Positions 4,395 to 12,810 of a stretch of 64,000 nt of DNA are shown piece after piece; the stretch's first letter is position 1; each line of letters begins with the position of its first letter. Both the position numbers and the translations under genes were made by a program. The DNA is taken from positions 2,912 to 66,911 of the forward strand of contig JAJDWI010000010.1 in assembly GCA_022825665.1 (NCBI GenBank), given 5' to 3'. Below the pieces are notes generated by a model. That model was not told the DNA's origin. It did not search any database and saw only the letters and a list, made by a program, of their open reading frames with translations. This DNA comes from Candidatus Poribacteria bacterium. GTDB taxonomy: Bacteria; Poribacteria; WGA-4E; WGA-3G.

Positions 4395-5405
4395 TTAGTC
4401 TACAACTTCGACCATGAAAGTAGGAAACAGAATTTGATCAGCATGCTTGAGCTGTCCGAAAATCTGATATTTTCCTGCCTTTGAAAAAGTGGTCATGAGC
4501 ATCACCTTAGGTCCAAATTTCTCTGGAGTAATACCTTGATGTTGATGCCCTGTTGATTCTTTCTTTTTCATTTTATGTTCAGCATGCGGATCTTTCTCTG
4601 CCATTTTTTCCATTTTCCCACTCATAGGAACTGTACCATGCGTATGTAGTATACCATCTAAACGGGTACTTACGATAGCAAAATGCATCGGTGCATCTAA
4701 AAATGGAACAAGATCGGTGATCGGTTTTCCATCACGTGAAAAATGATAGGTAATATGAACCATCTCACCCACCTTAATCTGTTCAGGCACTTCTATTTTC
4801 ACCTGATATTCGGAAGTGCCATTTTCATCGGTAACGGAAATCGCTTTTGTGAACCGATCTCCACCTTCTTCCTTATAACCGAAAACTGTTTTTTCCGTAC
4901 GAAGGTCTTCAGATATATCCGCCATCTTCTTCTCACCCGCGACATCTACATACAAGTATTTTGCGAATTCGTTATCTGCGGTCATCACATCAAGTGCTAA
5001 TATGTATCTGCCGGCAAAGGGAAATGTGAAGTGCACTGTATAAGTTCCTTCAAGTTCCGCCATCATATCACGCGACTCAAAATCTTCTGGGTGGACATGT
5101 CCAACAGTCTGTAAATTCTCACTGACGATTAGCACGTGGAGAATCCGATCATGATGTATCATCAAATCGGTAAACGGTTCACCCATTGCATCGGTGAGTT
5201 TGAACATGAGAGTTGCAGGTTTCCCAACCTCAATTTTCTGCGGTTCAGTGTGAAGTGCAACATTTAAGGTGCTGGTTTCTTGTTTCTTATGTGTGTCATG
5301 CTTTGCATGTTGTTCAGCATAACTGAAGTTTACAAATAACAACATGGTCAAGACGATTGCTATGGCATTACGAAAAATGTAAAACGTGAAATTCCGGGCT
5401 TGCAT
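4395..5405 (-). CDS. Secreted His/Met-rich protein with two tandem Ig-like repeats (possible metal binding)
   Basis: It has a signal/TM segment and an internal duplication: IEVGKPATLMFKLTDAMGEPFTDL...LHVLIVSENLQTVGHVHP versus IKVGEMVHITYHFSRDGKPITDL...MHFAIVSTRLDGILHTHG. A Met/His/Lys-rich loop (MSGKMEKMAEKDPHAEHKMKKK) is also present. Confidence 0.4.
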   Translation of the reverse strand: MQARNFTFYIFRNAIAIVLTMLLFVNFSYAEQHAKHDTHKKQETSTLNVALHTEPQKIEVGKPATLMFKLTDAMGEPFTDLMIHHDRILHVLIVSENLQTVGHVHPEDFESRDMMAELEGTYTVHFTFPFAGRYILALDVMTADNEFAKYLYVDVAGEKKMADISEDLRTEKTVFGYKEEGGDRFTKAISVTDENGTSEYQVKIEVPEQIKVGEMVHITYHFSRDGKPITDLVPFLDAPMHFAIVSTRLDGILHTHGTVPMSGKMEKMAEKDPHAEHKMKKKESTGHQHQGITPEKFGPKVMLMTTFSKAGKYQIFGQLKHADQILFPTFMVEVVD

Positions 5406-5521
5406 TATTATTCCTCCAAGTATAATCCTTAGTAAAATAGGTATAATTAATAGTCAATTTCCATTGCAAGTGTAAGTAGATGGACAGAATAGTCGTTAAA
5501 TCTTCTGATTGAATGTACTCT

Positions 5522-5947
5522 TTAAGAACGGGTATTAGGAGGACCGCGGCGGGAAAGGTTGCGGTTGAGTGATGAGATAACTAATTTTGGTGGAAGAGTG
5601 AAATGAAGTAATTGTTCCTGAGCAACTGGCTGAGTTAAAAATAATGGAACGTTAGGGACAAGGTGATGTTCCACAGGTTCACGAACAGAGTCGGCATTGT
5701 ATGTATCATTAGGAAGAACAATTTCTAAACCTAATACACAGCACGATGTGTCTGTCTCTGACGGCGTTTCAGACTCCTCTGTTGCATCAGTCTTCGCTTT
5801 TTGGCAACAAGACGAAATAGATTCAGCAGCCGACATACTTCTGTTGCACATTTTGTGTTCATAAGCCGCACAGAAAAGCGGACATACGAAAGTAACACAA
5901 ACCAGTGCAACAAGTAATATCTGATATTGCCAATATTTATGTGTCAT
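5522..5947 (-). CDS. Small Cys-rich membrane-anchored protein, function unknown
   Basis: It has an N-terminal TM helix with several Cys, and CC pairs at SSCCQK and TSCCV. It is the first gene of the minus-strand cluster and is divergent from msrP. Confidence 0.4.
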   Translation of the reverse strand: MTHKYWQYQILLVALVCVTFVCPLFCAAYEHKMCNRSMSAAESISSCCQKAKTDATEESETPSETDTSCCVLGLEIVLPNDTYNADSVREPVEHHLVPNVPLFLTQPVAQEQLLHFTLPPKLVISSLNRNLSRRGPPNTRS

Positions 5948-6179
5948 TGCTCAAAACTCCACTGCTTCTTAATGATAGGGAACAAATTTATTCTTTTAGG
6001 GTATTATACACCACAATCTGAAATAGTTGCAAGAAAATAAGTAACATCAAAACACAGTCCTAAATAAGGATTGCACATGAAACAGGTAACCTGTATAATG
6101 TGTATCATACAATTAACCCAAATATAATATAGTTTCACAGTGTGAACATATAAGAGAATAAAAGTCAAAGGAGAATCCG

Positions 6180-7139
6180 ATGGCAAACATAAAGATTCCA
6201 AAAGGATGGGAGATCCCAGAAAACCGTATTACTCCTGAATCAGTTTATATTAATCGTAGAAAGTTCATCAAAGACCTCGGCATAGTAGGAGCGGGGGCTT
6301 TATCACTGTTCGGTTCGAGTGCATGTGCACAGAATAAAGGTGTAGCAAAACAACTTGAAGCTTATCAAAAAGAAAAACTCTCAGCAGTAAAGAATGAAAA
6401 TTTCACTGTCACAAGACCACAAACTAAGGAAATCGTCGCTGCAACCTACAACAACTTCTATGAGTTCACATCCTCGAAAAGTACCGTCTGGAAACGCGTT
6501 GAAAGGTTCAAAACGCGTCCGTGGGAAGTTGAAATTACCGGTCATGTTGAAAATCCGATGACCATAGATGTGGATGACTTAATTAAACAGATGCCACTTG
6601 AAGAGCGTATCTATCGTTTTCGCTGTGTGGAAACTTGGGCAATGGTAGTACCGTGGATCGGTTTCCCGATGAAAGCACTCCTTGAAAAAGTGCAACCGAA
6701 ATCTTCTGCAAAATACGTTCGGATGGAGACGTTTTTTGACCCTGATGTGGCATCACATCAAAACGATGCGCGTCTGCCGTGGCCCTATGTTGAAGGCTTA
6801 ACGCTCGCGGAAGCCATGAATGAACTTACACTTATGGTTGTTGGTATCTACGGACATATTCTACCACCACAACACGGCGCACCTCTGCGATTGATTGCTC
6901 CTTGGAAATATGGGTTTAAAAGCATCAAATCAATTACCAGTATAGAACTGACTGACAAAAAACCACGTAACTTTTGGAATGTTATTCTTCCGAGGGAATA
7001 CGGTTTTGAAGCAAACGTGAATCCAAAAGTTCCACATCCCCGTTGGTCACAAGCTTCTGAATGGATGATTGGCTCAATGGACCGATATCCGACAAAGATA
7101 TACAACGGTTACGGTGAATATGTAGCGCACCTTTACTAA
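6180..7139 (+). CDS. msrP: Protein-methionine-sulfoxide reductase catalytic subunit MsrP (YedY, molybdopterin)
   Basis: It has a Tat-type signal (RRKFIKDLG). NNFYEF, EERIYRFRCVETWAMVVPWIGFP, QHGAPLRLIAPWKYGFKSIKSI and HPRWSQA track E. coli MsrP along its whole length. Confidence 0.9.
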   Translation: MANIKIPKGWEIPENRITPESVYINRRKFIKDLGIVGAGALSLFGSSACAQNKGVAKQLEAYQKEKLSAVKNENFTVTRPQTKEIVAATYNNFYEFTSSKSTVWKRVERFKTRPWEVEITGHVENPMTIDVDDLIKQMPLEERIYRFRCVETWAMVVPWIGFPMKALLEKVQPKSSAKYVRMETFFDPDVASHQNDARLPWPYVEGLTLAEAMNELTLMVVGIYGHILPPQHGAPLRLIAPWKYGFKSIKSITSIELTDKKPRNFWNVILPREYGFEANVNPKVPHPRWSQASEWMIGSMDRYPTKIYNGYGEYVAHLY

Positions 7140-7175
7140 GGACAACGCTAATTTACGAATTCTGACATTCTCAAA

Positions 7176-7240
7176 GGTAGGAGAGAACTCCGATTCCCGA
7201 CTACAAACAGGTCGCGATTCGGAGATCGCTCCTACAGAAA
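7176..7240. repeat. Pair of inverted hairpin + CTAC modules directly upstream of serpin 1
   Basis: gtaggagagaactccgattcccgactac is followed by gtcgcgattcggagatcgctcctacag, and the two are diverged reverse complements. The second matches 55219-55244 and 52929-52953. Confidence 0.75.
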
Positions 7241-7272
7241 TAGCAAATTACAAACAAAGATGGAGGAAGCAG

Positions 7273-8535
7273 GTGAATAACAAACACATAGTCGGAAAAT
7301 CCGTGCCAAGTTTGATGATTCTCGTATTTCTGTTATTTGCCGGATGTTTTGATTCTGTTGTGGATACACTTAACCAAGCGAAGGAGGATGCTGAAGTTGC
7401 CTCCATAGATTCCAACGTTCCATCTGGAAATACCGAATTCGGTTTTAACCTATTCAATACAATCTGGGAATCTGAACAGAACCAGAATATCTTTATTTCT
7501 CCGTTCAGTGTTTCCACAGCCCTTGCAATGACCTTAAACGGTGCAGCTGGTGAAACAGAAGAAGCAATGATTGATACGTTACAACTACAAGGTATTACCA
7601 CCAATTCAATCAATTCCAGTTACTATCAATTACTCCAGACACTTCAGACATCAGACCCGAAAGTTACACTCACAATAGCAAACTCGCTTTGGGCGCGCGA
7701 AGGGGTGCCGTTCAAGCAGGATTTCCAACAGCGAAATAGCCAATATTTCAATGCGGAAATCACAAGCTTGGATTTTGCAGATCCAAATTCCCTAACAACA
7801 ATTAATCAGTGGGTAAACACCAACACAAACGGCAAGATCAAAAAAATACTTGATGAGATTGAGTCGAATGCAGTGTTATTTCTCATAAATGCAATCTATT
7901 TCAAAGGTGAATGGAAAACAGAATTTGACCCGTCAGCAACGAGTGATAGAGATTTCCATCTTGTAACTGGTAGCACAAAGCAAGTGCCAATGATGGCGAG
8001 GAAAGGTAATTACGCATACTACGAAAATCACCACGATAATTTCCAAGCGATTAGCCTTCCTTATGGAGAAGGACAGATGGGTATGTACATCTTCCTCCCG
8101 TCCAACAAATCCAACCTAAATACCTTTTTAGATTCATTGAACGCAGAAAATTGGGAAAATTGGATTTCACAGCTGCGGGAACAGGAAGTGATGGTCTATA
8201 TTCCAAAGTTCAAAATGGAATACGGAACAAAGGAACTCAACGACGCGTTGACAAGTCTCAGTATGGGTATCGCTTTTGATGATGATAACGCTGATTTCAG
8301 CCGTATGGCATCTTTAGACGATATCGGTGGCAATCTATATATAGAAAAAGTAGCACATAAAACCTTCATAGAAGTCAACGAGGAGGGTTCAGAGGCTGCT
8401 GCTGCAACCAGTGTTGGGATAGGGATTAGATCAATCCTACGTACAGTATTTAATGCGGATCGACCATTTTTCTTTGCTATCCGTGATAACGAAACAAAAA
8501 CGATTCTGTTTATGGGAACTGTTGTGGACCCATAG
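7273..8535 (+). CDS. Serpin (lipoprotein-type signal), predicted P1 = Arg
   Basis: GTG start lies 5 nt after GGAGGA. A lipobox-like LFAGC is present. Serpin hallmarks are FISPFSVSTALAMTLNGA, the hinge EEGSEAAAAT and DRPFFFAIRD. Counting 17 residues from the hinge Glu puts P1 at Arg386 (nt 8428-8430). Confidence 0.9.
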   Translation: MNNKHIVGKSVPSLMILVFLLFAGCFDSVVDTLNQAKEDAEVASIDSNVPSGNTEFGFNLFNTIWESEQNQNIFISPFSVSTALAMTLNGAAGETEEAMIDTLQLQGITTNSINSSYYQLLQTLQTSDPKVTLTIANSLWAREGVPFKQDFQQRNSQYFNAEITSLDFADPNSLTTINQWVNTNTNGKIKKILDEIESNAVLFLINAIYFKGEWKTEFDPSATSDRDFHLVTGSTKQVPMMARKGNYAYYENHHDNFQAISLPYGEGQMGMYIFLPSNKSNLNTFLDSLNAENWENWISQLREQEVMVYIPKFKMEYGTKELNDALTSLSMGIAFDDDNADFSRMASLDDIGGNLYIEKVAHKTFIEVNEEGSEAAAATSVGIGIRSILRTVFNADRPFFFAIRDNETKTILFMGTVVDP

Positions 8536-8579
8536 GATGTACGAAGTAGAAGTATACATTAAAAAGGAGACCTACTCTG

Positions 8580-9836
8580 GTGAACACAAAATATAGAAAA
8601 ATATGTGAAATAAATCTTATCCTCATGATGTGTGGATTGACACTACTTATTTTCATAGGTTGTGAACGTGAATTAGATCCAGAAATCATCAAAAGTGAAC
8701 CTGGAACTTTTGACCCAAATGTCGTCTCTGCTAATACCAAATTCGGCTTTAATCTATTCAATGAAATCCGAAAAATTGACCAAGATAAGAATATCTTTGT
8801 TTCTCCGTTTAGTGTTTCCGTTGCGTTGGCAATGACGTTAAACGGTGCAGCAGGTGATACAGAGCAAGCGATGGTCAATACTTTGCAGCTACAAGGGTTA
8901 GGCAACGAGTTAATCAATTCCGGTTATTCATACTTGAATCAGACACTTCAGACAGCAGATCCGAAGGTGACACTCACGATAGCAAACTCACTCTGGGGAA
9001 AACAAGGGATACCATTTAATCAGGATTTCTTGGATAGAAACGCACAATATTTCAACGCAGAGATTACAACACTGGATTTTAGCGATCCGAGTGCATCACA
9101 AACGATTAATATGTGGGTTGATAACAGTACCAATGGCAGAATACAGAAAATCGTAGACGATAACATTGACCCTCAAATGGTGTTATTTCTAATCAATGCA
9201 ATCTATTTCAAGGGATCTTGGCAAACAAAATTTGATTCCGAAAACACGCGTGATGCGGCGTTCCATCTTGAATCAGGAAGCACTAAGCAAGTGCCGATGA
9301 TGAATAGGACAGATGAATATATGCACTACGTAAACCTTGAGGATAATTTTCAGGCAATTAGCCTTCCTTATGGTGATGGACAGATGAGTATGTATATCTT
9401 CCTACCCTCGCGTGAATCCGATCTTAATACATTTTTGGATAGTTTGAATGCAGAAAATTGGGAAAATTGGATTTCACAGTTCCAAGAACGTAAAATATGG
9501 GTGCAAATTCCGAAATTTTCATTAGAATATGAAACAAGTCTTATTGATACGTTAACATCACTTGGTATGTCGGTAGCATTTGATGAAGGAAAGGCAGATT
9601 TTAGCCGTATGGCATCATTTGAGAACTTGGATAGAAATTTGTATATTGCAAAGGTGAAACATAAAACTTTCATAGAAGTTAACGAAGAGGGTTCGGAAGC
9701 TGCCGCAGTGACCGGTATCGGTATTGCTGTTACATCACTTCCACCACAGTTTATTGCAGATAGACCATTTTTCTTTGCAATTCGCGATAACAAAACTAAG
9801 ACGGTGCTATTTATGGGTACTGTGGTAGATCCATAG
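8580..9836 (+). CDS. Serpin paralogue (lipoprotein-type signal) with a different, one-residue-shorter reactive-centre loop
   Basis: The body is highly similar to the upstream serpin. It has lipobox-like FIGC and the hinge EEGSEAAAVT, and its RCL is GIGIAVTSLPPQF compared with SVGIGIRSILRTVF in serpin 1. Confidence 0.9.
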   Translation: MNTKYRKICEINLILMMCGLTLLIFIGCERELDPEIIKSEPGTFDPNVVSANTKFGFNLFNEIRKIDQDKNIFVSPFSVSVALAMTLNGAAGDTEQAMVNTLQLQGLGNELINSGYSYLNQTLQTADPKVTLTIANSLWGKQGIPFNQDFLDRNAQYFNAEITTLDFSDPSASQTINMWVDNSTNGRIQKIVDDNIDPQMVLFLINAIYFKGSWQTKFDSENTRDAAFHLESGSTKQVPMMNRTDEYMHYVNLEDNFQAISLPYGDGQMSMYIFLPSRESDLNTFLDSLNAENWENWISQFQERKIWVQIPKFSLEYETSLIDTLTSLGMSVAFDEGKADFSRMASFENLDRNLYIAKVKHKTFIEVNEEGSEAAAVTGIGIAVTSLPPQFIADRPFFFAIRDNKTKTVLFMGTVVDP

Positions 9837-9848
9837 GCGTAAGCATGT

Positions 9849-10769
9849 ATGACGTTTCAAATGAAATACGTTGTTTTTGTTTTATTATTACTTCCGTCAT
9901 TCTCCGTAGGTGCTTCATGGGAAACATCAGAAAGCACGCATTTTCGCTTATACTACAGAGAAAACACAGCAGATCCCGCGTCTATACTCGAAATAGCGGA
10001 AGATTTCTATGCTGAGATGCCTCGGATAACACGTCATATTCCAGATGAAACGATTAAAATATATATTTGTGATACCCAAAGAGCGTTTCAAGCCTTTGTT
10101 CATGCACCAATACAGGATTGGGCGGTTGGATGTGCGTTTCCGTTGAGTCGGCGTATTGTCATCCAAAATCCGAAACAGATAACAGTGGCGAAACTCCAAT
10201 TAGCGCAAGTTCTTCGACACGAAATTGCCCATGTTCTTTTTGGACAATATACTAAGAAAGCGGTTAAAGGAATGCCGTTATGGTTTGTGGAAGGTATTGC
10301 AATTCACTTCTCAAAGGAATGGGTGCCCGGTCGGCACGAAACCTTACTGAAAAATGTCTTCACAAAATCTATTTTACCGCTTAATGAGTTAACAAATAAA
10401 TTTCCAGTTTCACAGAATGGTGCGGATTTGGCTTATGCACAAAGTCAAGATGCCCTACGTTGGTTCGTTGAAGTTAATGGTACAGAACCATTATGGGCAG
10501 TTATTGACCTACTACATACAGGATCGAATCTCAACACTGCATTTAAATCAGTTCTCGGCTATGATCTTACAATCTTTGATATGCAATGGCGAGAATCACT
10601 ACCAAAACGTTATCATTGGGCATCTCTGCTATCCAGTTCATACATTTTTTGGGGTGGTTTGGCAGTGTTATTTTTGTTTTTCTATTTTATCAGTTGGAAT
10701 CGTAGACGAATGCGACTCAATAAACTTGCACAACAGGAAGAAGTCGTAGATGCCTTCTTCAGAAAGTAA
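9849..10769 (+). CDS. Peptidase MA-like zinc metalloprotease (HEXXH) with a C-terminal membrane anchor
   Basis: It has a signal peptide, LRHEIAHVLF (HEXXH) followed by WFVEGIAIHF, and a C-terminal TM helix with a basic tail. It starts 12 nt after serpin 2. Confidence 0.65.
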   Translation: MTFQMKYVVFVLLLLPSFSVGASWETSESTHFRLYYRENTADPASILEIAEDFYAEMPRITRHIPDETIKIYICDTQRAFQAFVHAPIQDWAVGCAFPLSRRIVIQNPKQITVAKLQLAQVLRHEIAHVLFGQYTKKAVKGMPLWFVEGIAIHFSKEWVPGRHETLLKNVFTKSILPLNELTNKFPVSQNGADLAYAQSQDALRWFVEVNGTEPLWAVIDLLHTGSNLNTAFKSVLGYDLTIFDMQWRESLPKRYHWASLLSSSYIFWGGLAVLFLFFYFISWNRRRMRLNKLAQQEEVVDAFFRK

Positions 10770-10775
10770 ATACCT

Positions 10776-11753
10776 ATGAATACTTACCTTTTTCCCCTCA
10801 CCCTTTTGCTCGTATGTTTCACAATGGTTGCAAATACACAACCGAAAAACCTATCACAATATCCTAATGAGTACACACGAGATGGACACGTAGTCGTCCT
10901 GCCTGACCACGGCACTGTCTATATTATTGCTGACCTACATGCACACTGGAACGATTTTAATCAGTGGCTTGGACAAACACGACTGATTGAACGTATAGAA
11001 GCAGGTGAAGATGTTTATGGAATTATGCTTGGGGATGTGATTGATTATAAACCTGATGAAAAGCCTGAACCACCTTATGGCGACATACAAATTGTTAACC
11101 GTGTGATTGAAATACAGCAACAACTTGGGGATAATGGGAAGAGACTTATCTATATTAGAGGAAACCACGAATTCGCGGCAGCAGACACTTACGCTGTGAT
11201 GAAAAGAAGCGGAATGTCCGATGATAATAGAAAGATTTTCATTGATAGATTATACAACAGCATAAACGGTAGTTACTATAAACAATTTAATTTCATTGAG
11301 CGAATGAATGATACACATTTTGATTTCATTATGAACCTTCCAACGGTCGTTATCGGTAAAAAGGGATTTGTGGCAGTTCATGCAGGTCCAGCGCGTAATA
11401 TTAATAGCATATCAGACCTTGTTACACCCGCTAAAGATACACTGGATGAGATGCTATGGGACCGATCAAAAATAGTCATGTTTGGCGGATATACATTGAA
11501 ACATACCGAGAACTTTCTCAACGCTCTCAATGCAAGATTTTTAGTTGTTGGACATACCCCCGTGGGACTTTTCCCACCAAGAAATGTTAAAGATGGTGTA
11601 GTCAGACTCGGAGGAAAACAGCTCATCTTTTCCACAGGTTACAGCGGAACCAAAGGTGGACAAACCTATATAGAAATTGATTTAGCCAAAAACTATTCCT
11701 CTGTTGATGAATTACAATTCGGTGTTAACATTCATCTTCTCTACCCGAAATAA
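10776..11753 (+). CDS. Secreted calcineurin-like metallophosphoesterase (PPP-type)
   Basis: It has a signal peptide and the motifs IIADLHAH, GDVIDY, RGNHEF and VGHTP. Confidence 0.75.
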   Translation: MNTYLFPLTLLLVCFTMVANTQPKNLSQYPNEYTRDGHVVVLPDHGTVYIIADLHAHWNDFNQWLGQTRLIERIEAGEDVYGIMLGDVIDYKPDEKPEPPYGDIQIVNRVIEIQQQLGDNGKRLIYIRGNHEFAAADTYAVMKRSGMSDDNRKIFIDRLYNSINGSYYKQFNFIERMNDTHFDFIMNLPTVVIGKKGFVAVHAGPARNINSISDLVTPAKDTLDEMLWDRSKIVMFGGYTLKHTENFLNALNARFLVVGHTPVGLFPPRNVKDGVVRLGGKQLIFSTGYSGTKGGQTYIEIDLAKNYSSVDELQFGVNIHLLYPK

Positions 11754-11770
11754 TAGTAGAGTGTCGTTGT

Positions 11771-12673
11771 ATGCGTGCGTTAATCTACATAATGACCCCT
11801 ATTCTGATTCTGACGATTATTCTTGCATCGCGCTTCGTATCATGGGAAAGACTAAAAGGGTTTGACAGTGATGCAGATAAACACCTAACTGACGGAACAC
11901 AATTGCTTGGAAAAGGGAAATTTTACCGATCCATATCCGAACTTACCCGTGCAATTGAGATTGAGCCAAAATATGCAGAAGCATACATCAATCGTGGACG
12001 TGCATACTACTATCTGGCACGATACAAAGATGCAATAGCAGATTATACACAGACCATATCACTCAATCAGTATATAGCCGATGCTTATGCCAGTCGTGGG
12101 GACGTTTATCGCGTCTTAAATGATATTCCACAGGCTATTGACGATTACACCGAATCACTCAAAGCAAGAAAAAATGCTCTTGTCCTGTCAAAACGCGCAA
12201 AATGTTATCTGCTGTCAGGAAAACCTGATGAGGCAATTCGCGATTATACTGACATTGTTAAGCATCGTCCTACCGCAATTGCCTACAACAACCGTGGCAT
12301 AGCATACCATAAAAAGTATCTATTATCAGATAAGAACGATAAATCGCAAAAGCACGCCTTAGCGGATTTTGACAAAGCCATTGAAATGCAACCACACTTC
12401 GCAATTGCGTATCTGAATCGTAGCGATATTCATGGAGATTTGGGGCAACAAAATTTGAAAGATGCCGATTTAACCAAGTCTATTGAACTGCTAACAGAGG
12501 CAATTGATAACTGGGAAAATGAACAGTATGAATTAATCCCTATTTATCTATGGCGTGCCGTAGCATTAAAGAAAAACAACCAGATTGACAAAGCACGACA
12601 CGATGTTAAGAGGATTTACGTGCTCATCAGCCAATTTTTCTTGAATAATATAAAGAATTTTGATATACTATAA
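11771..12673 (+). CDS. Membrane-anchored TPR-repeat protein
   Basis: It has an N-terminal TM helix and repeated 34-aa TPR signatures (AEAYINRGRAYYYLARYKDAIADY, ADAYASRGDVY, AIAYNNRGIAY, AIAYLNRSDIH). Confidence 0.8.
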   Translation: MRALIYIMTPILILTIILASRFVSWERLKGFDSDADKHLTDGTQLLGKGKFYRSISELTRAIEIEPKYAEAYINRGRAYYYLARYKDAIADYTQTISLNQYIADAYASRGDVYRVLNDIPQAIDDYTESLKARKNALVLSKRAKCYLLSGKPDEAIRDYTDIVKHRPTAIAYNNRGIAYHKKYLLSDKNDKSQKHALADFDKAIEMQPHFAIAYLNRSDIHGDLGQQNLKDADLTKSIELLTEAIDNWENEQYELIPIYLWRAVALKKNNQIDKARHDVKRIYVLISQFFLNNIKNFDIL

Positions 12674-12786: not shown

Positions 12787-12810
12787 GCGCGCTTACAAAG
12801 CGCGCCTACC
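12787..12810. repeat. gcgcgcttacaaagcgcgc + CTAC hairpin module
   Basis: The same module occurs at 25868-25890 and 31225-31247. Here it sits inside a longer imperfect palindrome (taggacttacg...gcataagtccta, about 12707-12830). Confidence 0.8.

Follow-up and report, generated by a model that had tools for sequence, protein, structure and literature searches.

The closest known counterpart of the serpins treated here is miropin of Tannerella forsythia, described as a surface-exposed bacterial inhibitor that acts via V367-K368, K368-T369 and T369-S370 and is proposed to shield the cell against host proteases and neighbouring ones (PMC13692248). Here we report on two tandem serpin genes (serpin 1 and serpin 2) of Candidatus Poribacteria bacterium (assembly GCA_022825665.1, contig JAJDWI010000010.1), which open a row of five co-directional open reading frames (ORFs) at 7273-12673 of the analysed window, i.e., the whole stretch of 64,000 nucleotides. 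The three remaining ORFs encode a zinc peptidase, a PPP-like phosphatase and a tetratricopeptide repeat (TPR) protein, and a preliminary description had taken all five as a coupled, undescribed functional module. We consider it probable, instead, that the two proteins are lipid-anchored envelope serpins of the miropin type, competent for inhibition by their appearance and directed against exogenous proteases, and that their genes are accessory inserts and not part of a module.

The native structure of miropin (PDB 5NCS) and its cleaved forms (5NCT, 5NCU and 5NCW) are the best natural matches in the PDB, with E values of 4e-70 and 3e-66, and in the HMMER alignments the conservation is concentrated in core motifs. 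As in miropin, the serpins belong to a host-associated bacterium and are tethered or exposed at the envelope (here a prediction), and the miropin hinge, EEGTEAAAVT, is taken as the same as the hinge of the window serpins. The miropin loop, ...VKTS, aligns with ...AVTS of serpin 2. Several orthologues in other species of the window's genus carry an identical VKTS, and only there is it found: the miropin-type multi-site V-K-T-S loop is absent from the window serpins themselves, which read GIR/SIL and AVT/SLP (here and below a slash marks the P1-P1' bond). The two systems differ in how breadth is reached, since miropin is a single gene that owes it to three scissile bonds in one loop, whereas here two paralogues have different P1 residues. 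The hosts differ as well, a mammal in the case of miropin and a sponge in ours.

Mammalian SERPINA clusters and the loop variants of insect serpins share with the present pair a history of tandem duplication and divergence at P1 and the nearby loop, with hinge and scaffold kept; here, however, the serpins are prokaryotic and lipoprotein-anchored by prediction. Sponge Thaumarchaeota (Ca. Nitrosospongia ianthellae and Cenarchaeum symbiosum) are enriched in serpins, for which the consulted parts of the sources propose protection against host proteases or against digestion by amoebocytes (PMC6790972, PMC7848895). These are likewise sponge symbionts with serpins; they differ in being Archaea, and no lipoprotein tether or P1 analysis is quoted in those parts of the sources. 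A literature search on Poribacteria serpins found no paper. The window serpins belong to the known class of tethered bacterial serpins, and their evolution follows the pattern known from serpin clusters.

Two predicted lipoprotein serpins with different reactive-centre loops

Both proteins cover positions 2-370 of the 370 in the Pfam Serpin model (PF00079, the I4 inhibitors of MEROPS; 415.2 bits for serpin 1 and 417.4 bits for serpin 2), match PDB serpins at E values down to 1e-77 and are 65% identical to each other. Their N-termini, which follow GTG starts in both genes, are conserved among orthologues. The lipobox-like signals noted in the preliminary description are borne out by these N-termini and by their conservation in relatives: LFAG precedes C25 in serpin 1 and IFIG precedes C28 in serpin 2, each closing an N-terminal hydrophobic segment. 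When the N-termini are read by eye, a (G/A/S)-Cys pair after a hydrophobic stretch is found in essentially all 66 Poribacteria serpins collected; a deliberately narrow regular expression counts 45 of the 66, the remaining N-termini reading, e.g., SLGC, YTGC or FNGC. This pattern supports lipoprotein anchoring as a predicted property of Poribacteria serpins.

Inhibitory serpins have the P17-P9 hinge consensus ExGTEAAAA, as given in the consulted part of the source (PMC8233489). The hinges EEGSEAAAA (serpin 1) and EEGSEAAAV (serpin 2) fit an inhibitory consensus of the form ExG(T/S)EAAA(A/V), in which P12-P9 are small residues, and the hinge columns reach a mean major-residue frequency of 92% across the serpins of the genus. 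Aligned to conserpin, in alpha-1-antitrypsin numbering, the loop of serpin 1 reads EEGSEAAAATSVGIGIR/SILRTVF, with P17 at E370 and P1 at R386, which confirms the P1 assigned earlier. For serpin 2 the choice had been left between Thr and Val, with a loop shorter by one residue. Its loop aligns gap-free to conserpin with the alpha-1-antitrypsin loop (M358 on T385, S359 on S386 and IPPEF on LPPQF), as well as to ...MVKTS... of miropin, and P1 is therefore Thr385. The missing residue lies on the P' side, and the distance from P17 to P1 is 17 residues in both proteins (E370-R386 and E369-T385). Comparison with reference serpins thus upholds both the inhibitory hinge and the difference of Arg versus Thr at P1.

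The two proteins had also been said to share a highly similar body and to differ exactly in the bait loop, which turns out to be overstated. The loop stands out locally, with 4 of 14 positions identical between P8 and P6', against 25 of 28 in the C-terminal strands; the body, however, is identical at only 215 of 319 positions, i.e., 67%. Genus-wide, the entropy of the loop ranks only 83rd of 357 windows, a further difference from the SERPINA and insect cases, and we rejected the idea that it is the most variable part of the serpin. The reactive-centre loop is a local hotspot of divergence between serpin 1 and serpin 2, not their sole difference.

Between the two genes, which are otherwise 68% identical, we also noticed an exact DNA match of 30 nt (approximately 8143-8172 against 9447-9476) that encodes FLDSLNAENWENWISQ. 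Short-tract gene conversion or strong constraint may account for it.

Distribution and duplication of serpins in Poribacteria

Serpins occur in 141 of 176 Poribacteria genomes and in 15 of 31 genera; the source genome has only the two described here. In a large protein search with the serpin as query, all of the top 120 matches for which a source was named came from Poribacteria. In a maximum-likelihood tree, the serpins of the window's genus all fall into one clade (100/100), inside which the copies with a basic loop (GIR/S, GxK/S or IVKT/S, including serpin 1) form a subclade of their own (100/100) and the Thr-type copies, including serpin 2, are basal. The duplication is therefore older than the genus radiation. 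Which of the two types stands nearer to the peptidase gene varies among the species of the genus.

Sister copies in the sister families also differ at the aligned P1, with K versus D in one genome (G032), K versus E in two (G031 and G040) and K versus Q in another (G038). In the tree, recent duplications in these families were followed by changes of K to D, E or Q. The pair in our window would thus stem from a duplication that preceded the genus radiation, and similar P1-switching duplications would have arisen independently in the sister families. Tandem duplication followed by P1 switching, recurrent across the phylum, is the classical pattern of serpin evolution. The usual loop in genera g12 and g13 is VT/SVPPPP.

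Two genomes deserve mention in their own right. G032 has three tandem serpins (L070, 7605-11476) in the order sucC, pgk, three serpins, DNA methylase, proS; two of them are near-identical sisters, with branch lengths of 0.03-0.09 and an aligned P1 of K versus D, which points to a very recent duplication with a loop switch. The g13 species G169 gives six serpin matches, and one divergent copy (L106, 5137-6492) has a long atypical loop, EEGTEASTGSFVFFDADVTTALAEESVPP, with a hinge that lacks the Ala run; judging from this sequence, it may be non-inhibitory.

The serpins as a facultative insert in a conserved row

Ten genomes of the window's genus share the row MsrP-like gene, serpin(s), peptidase, phosphatase, TPR protein, BMC-H, PduL, orf246 and orf525, and the row is collinear across all six genera of the family (f1), over a neighbourhood of more than 10 kb. 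Because this collinearity reaches far past the five genes, to the msrP-like and microcompartment genes among others, the conservation of the row within the genus is uninformative about them, and we rejected it as support for a module. What varies within the family is the serpin slot, which holds zero, one or two genes. Genera g9, g10 and g11 and several g13 species leave it empty, with peptidase, phosphatase and TPR protein intact; g12 and most of g13 have a single serpin there, and the window's genus one or two. In relatives that lack the serpin, just 17-114 nt separate the msrP-like gene from the peptidase gene, and two genomes (G147 and G175) carry a single serpin at a different locus, amid sugar-metabolism genes.

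Outside the family, in f2, f3 and f4, the serpins, the peptidase gene and the phosphatase-TPR pair are found at different loci, amid unrelated genes. One to three tandem serpins of the sister families sit in a housekeeping row of sucC, serpin(s), pgk, (panB or methylase), proS and sucD, and those of f4 adjoin RNase J. Neither the neighbours in this row, the DNA methylase included, nor RNase J qualified as a conserved serpin partner. The peptidase orthologue of the sister families, 46-53% identical, adjoins an ECF sigma/anti-sigma pair with HIT, or Iso_dh, or MR_MLE genes; conserved peptidase neighbours were rejected too, as they differ by family. Where the surrounding synteny breaks, the five-gene set does not hold together and the phosphatase-TPR pair alone does, its adjacency being retained in four sister-family genomes (G037, G038, G032 and G025).

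Because serpin slots are empty in part of the family and the loci are dispersed in the sister families, the five-gene set amounts to three units that lie side by side at the level of one family, the serpins being a facultative insert. The claim of a coupled functional module does not survive this comparison, with a slot of zero, one or two serpins in f1 and genes that are unlinked in f2-f4. Our survey of neighbourhoods for serpins together with the peptidase, phosphatase and TPR genes found the order kept inside one family only, a depth at which its conservation is uninformative, and dispersed beyond it. The tidy five-gene "operon" is a conserved row plus a facultative insertion slot, which calls for caution in inferring function from adjacency within one genus.

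The slot is also open to other genes. Some species have a 516-aa YfbK-like von Willebrand factor type A (vWA) lipoprotein (vWF_A, VWA and YfbK_C) between serpin and peptidase (L017, 8801-10351; L018, 6938-8488; L019, 7889-9496; L107, 8127-9668). Its signal peptide (MKTKFGNL...LLIYTGC) is close to the serpin 2 type, and this likeness suggests recombination at signal-peptide sequences in the slot. In G001, a DDE transposase gene (DDE_5/DDE_Tnp_1; 425 aa) at 5526-6803 of L023 interrupts the sole serpin (serpin region 4889-7550); this genome is a natural serpin knockout with its downstream row intact.

Proposed function of the serpins

Serpins trap proteases that form an acyl-enzyme intermediate, i.e., serine and some cysteine proteases, and a zinc peptidase can only cleave them. 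Starting from the gene structure, hinge and P1, lipobox conservation, copy phylogeny and synteny observed above, we propose for inhibition, targets, localisation and co-transcription the following. The reactive-centre loop would act as bait, and a serine protease cutting P1-P1' would be trapped as an acyl-enzyme upon insertion of the loop into beta-sheet A. Serpin 1, with Arg at P1, would target trypsin-like enzymes; serpin 2, with Thr at P1 and Ser at P1' followed by LPP, would target enzymes with a preference for small or beta-branched residues, e.g., elastase-like or subtilisin-like ones. Jointly, the two would broaden the range of exogenous proteases kept off the cell surface or periplasm, enzymes that would most plausibly come from the sponge host or its phagocytic cells. 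The isolate names of closely related Poribacteria metagenome-assembled genomes point to sponge metagenomes (in one case coral), which suggests that the source organism is a sponge symbiont. The serpins would be accessory genes in a variable slot between the msrP-like gene and the conserved peptidase-phosphatase-TPR row, probably co-transcribed with that row in this genome and functionally independent of it.

Exogenous targets are favoured because whole genera have freely lost their serpins, no target protease is linked to them in four families, and P1 has switched repeatedly. Such a role agrees with the proposals made for miropin (PMC13692248) and for the serpins of sponge Thaumarchaeota (PMC7848895, PMC6790972). 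Serpins belong to the small number of proteins for which a direct role at the symbiont-host interface is plausible; those of Poribacteria, lipid-anchored by sequence, widespread and repeatedly duplicated with P1 change, are good candidates for resisting host proteolysis or digestion.

Several points weigh against this proposal. Thr at P1 is unusual, and the target class of serpin 2 is therefore a guess; more generally, inhibition and targets are predictions, and the compartment would be either the periplasm or the cell surface. The genome encodes two subtilases of ~1340 aa and ~ten chymotrypsin-fold genes, none of them near the serpins, which are candidate self targets. Finally, the 12-nt junction between serpin 2 and the peptidase gene and the family-wide persistence of serpins at this site would fit co-regulation with the downstream genes.

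The self targets lead to a reading in which the serpins restrain serine proteases that the bacterium itself secretes or has in its periplasm (subtilases, HtrA-like), much as Tk-serpin and cellulosomal serpins are thought to control proteases of their own cells. The large subtilases and the chymotrypsin-fold proteases are present, and the serpins would be tethered in a compartment that these enzymes reach. Nevertheless, no such protease gene adjoins the serpins in the contexts examined in four families, a restraint on endogenous enzymes fits poorly with the free loss of serpins in whole genera, and a P1 that has passed through K, R, T, E, D and Q is easier to reconcile with external targets that change than with one fixed endogenous partner; we regard this reading as unlikely. 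That one or both serpins are non-inhibitory, as binding or chaperone-type proteins or decaying duplicates, might be argued from the scarcity of P1 Thr among characterised inhibitors, from the transposase-split serpin of G001 and from the frequent loss of copies. It is extremely improbable given a canonical inhibitory hinge that is 92% conserved in the genus, intact frames, a correct loop length and two types kept as distinct clades over the genus radiation.

It is the adjacency of the five genes that gave rise to the idea of a dedicated envelope module whose products would act on one another or share a substrate; for example, the serpins might be processed or inactivated by the peptidase and regulated by the phosphatase-TPR pair. 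The genes are co-directional, the junctions from serpin 2 onward are short (12, 6 and 17 nt) with no internal terminator on the + strand, all five products carry export or anchor signals, hairpins bracket exactly this block, and serpins stand at the same junction in three genera of the family. Yet peptidase, phosphatase and TPR protein persist in g9, g10, g11 and several g13 species with the slot empty, G147 and G175 have their serpin elsewhere, and the three units are unlinked in f2, f3 and f4. The family collinearity also takes in the msrP-like and microcompartment genes, which are unrelated, and hence does not single out the five. Metallopeptidases, moreover, form no acyl intermediate of the kind that serpins trap. 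For this reason the adjacent gluzincin is not a serpin target, a candidate that we rejected on this mechanism and on the lack of co-occurrence. We find the module very improbable. A wider version would add the msrP-like gene to the serpin(s), the gluzincin, the putatively exported PPP-like phosphatase and the TPR protein, all in one co-regulated envelope-defence island for life in sponge tissue or the phagosome. There, the repair of oxidised envelope proteins would fall to MsrP and the blocking of host serine proteases to the tethered serpins; the peptidase, together with the split PP5-like phosphatase-TPR pair, would remodel the envelope or signal damage to it, and the slot with its serpins and vWA lipoprotein would supply what is host-specific and exchangeable. 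We give such an island a slim chance. Tethered, accessory serpins acting on exogenous proteases thus remain our preferred reading.

Layout of the gene block and transcription signals

The coordinates of the block and its features are collected in Table 1. The five ORFs, their strand and the gaps of 44, 12, 6 and 17 nt between them are in the ORF listing as the preliminary description gave them. Besides the serpins, Pfam finds Peptidase_MA_2 (PF13485; 86.7 bits) in the peptidase, Metallophos (46.3 bits) in the phosphatase and multiple TPR families in the fifth ORF; NCBIfam has no specific model for any of the five products.

Table 1. Positions of the serpin genes, their neighbours and associated features in the window.
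Feature	Position	Strand	Remarks
Serpin 1 ORF	7273-8535	+	420 aa; lipoprotein-type inhibitory serpin (predicted); GTG start, GGAGGA Shine-Dalgarno upstream
Reactive-centre loop, serpin 1	8380-8448	+	P17 E370 to P6'; hinge EEGSEAAAAT; P1 R386 (codon 8428-8430), P1' S387
Serpin 2 ORF	8580-9836	+	418 aa; lipoprotein-type inhibitory serpin (predicted); GTG start, AAGGAGA Shine-Dalgarno upstream
Reactive-centre loop, serpin 2	9684-9749	+	P17 E369 to P5'; hinge EEGSEAAAVT; P1 T385 (codon 9732-9734), P1' S386, then LPPQF
Peptidase_MA_2 gluzincin ORF	9849-10769	+	306 aa
Peptidase HEIAH	10218-10232	+	Zinc motif, residues 124-128
Peptidase E148	10290-10292	+	Third ligand, 20 residues past the second His
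Peptidase C-terminal transmembrane (TM) segment	10620-10700	+	Residues ~258-284, from hydropathy; basic tail after the TM segment
PPP-fold metallophosphoesterase ORF	10776-11753	+	325 aa; N-terminal hydrophobic segment
TPR-repeat protein ORF	11771-12673	+	300 aa; N-terminal TM or signal-anchor segment
MsrP-like molybdopterin oxidoreductase gene	6180-7139	+	Upstream neighbour of serpin 1; Pfam Oxidored_molyb, 121 bits
Imperfect palindrome, ~59-nt hairpin	7177-7235	+	In the msrP-serpin 1 spacer; both arms match GTAGGAGNGANCTCCGA; no U-tract
GC-rich 8-bp hairpin	12787-12805	+	GCGCGCTT-ACA-AAGCGCGC; 113 nt past the TPR stop codon; no U-tract

Export of the products was judged from hydropathy and conservation. 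On these grounds, the earlier proposal that all three downstream products are exported or membrane-anchored is supported as a prediction, with N-terminal hydrophobic segments at residues 1-19 of the phosphatase and 1-25 of the TPR protein.

From their arrangement, it is plausible that the five genes are co-transcribed in this genome. A consensus scan found no intrinsic terminator on the + strand inside 7273-12673, and a scan for the sigma-70 promoter consensus gave 17 hits against 19.1 expected, i.e., chance level. Upstream of the block, the arms of the palindrome in the msrP-serpin spacer, which is single-copy in the window, have 0.06 matches expected by chance, and the spacer RNA folds at -36.4 kcal/mol (z = -4.4). 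This hairpin may mark a transcript boundary; it may be a terminator, a processing site or a repetitive extragenic palindromic (REP)-like element. The region around the downstream hairpin folds with z = -1.55 overall; a 3' transcript boundary may, very tentatively, be placed there.

Peptidase, phosphatase and TPR protein

The HEIAH zinc peptidase with a C-terminal TM helix stands as it had been described, and H124, E125, H128 and E148 are invariant in 30 orthologues. Since its N-terminus is signal-like and the TM helix is followed by a basic tail, it should be anchored in the inner membrane and face the periplasm, as far as these sequence features tell. A PDB sequence search gave nothing significant for peptidase or phosphatase, and we used AlphaFold2 (AF2) models with Foldseek instead. 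The peptidase model (pLDDT 80.6) is nearest to the M9 collagenase peptidase domains of clostridia (ColH) and Vibrio and to M1 catalytic domains, at a TMq of ~0.5; on this modelled, thermolysin-like fold, it is a generic gluzincin of clan MA(E) without assignment to a specific MEROPS family.

Two further observations concern the peptidase. Orthologue alignments start at about residue 4-5 of the ORF, and translation may begin at Met5 (ATG at 9861), in which case the gap after serpin 2 would grow from 12 to 24 nt. A larger protein (~970-1010 aa), which has a Peptidase_MA_2-like domain and shows 25-29% identity to the peptidase of the window, is found in all genomes of the order (G000:C126:9320-10048, with orthologues in all 41 relatives), including f4, where the 306-aa peptidase is missing.

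The phosphatase had been presented as a PPP enzyme with a signal peptide; its fold and its N-terminal hydrophobic segment support this, and its motifs are canonical only in part. It carries DLHAH, GDVIDYK, GNHE, VHAG and GHTP; against the PPP signatures GDxHG, GDxVDRG and GNHE, this means DLHAH without GDxHG, GDVIDYK without the Arg, and GNHE itself. Residues D53, G86, D87, N130, H131, E132, H202, G259 and H260 are invariant among orthologues. The top 50 Foldseek matches of its AF2 model (pLDDT 85.7) are PP5, PP1, PP2A, PPZ1 and calcineurin, with E values from 4e-10 to 2e-8 and a TMq of ~0.5. The protein is PPP-like by its modelled fold, with a canonical motif III (GNHE) and non-canonical motifs I and II.

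In the large protein search, the orthologue groups of peptidase and phosphatase comprised Poribacteria only, among the matches with a source name, and the phosphatase and TPR families (10776-12673; L083, L084, L085, L086) appear restricted to this phylum. The PPP-like phosphatase and the TPR protein are a separate conserved pair. PP5 is a TPR domain fused to a PPP catalytic domain, and it is among the top fold matches of the phosphatase model, whose gene, alone of the five, has a conserved partner, namely the TPR gene. Here, however, we find two separate genes and no fusion, both products have N-terminal hydrophobic segments for export or anchoring, and motifs I and II of the phosphatase depart from the canonical ones. 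The resemblance to PP5 is an analogy only, and the putatively exported PPP-like phosphatase-TPR pair is a small lead separate from the serpins.

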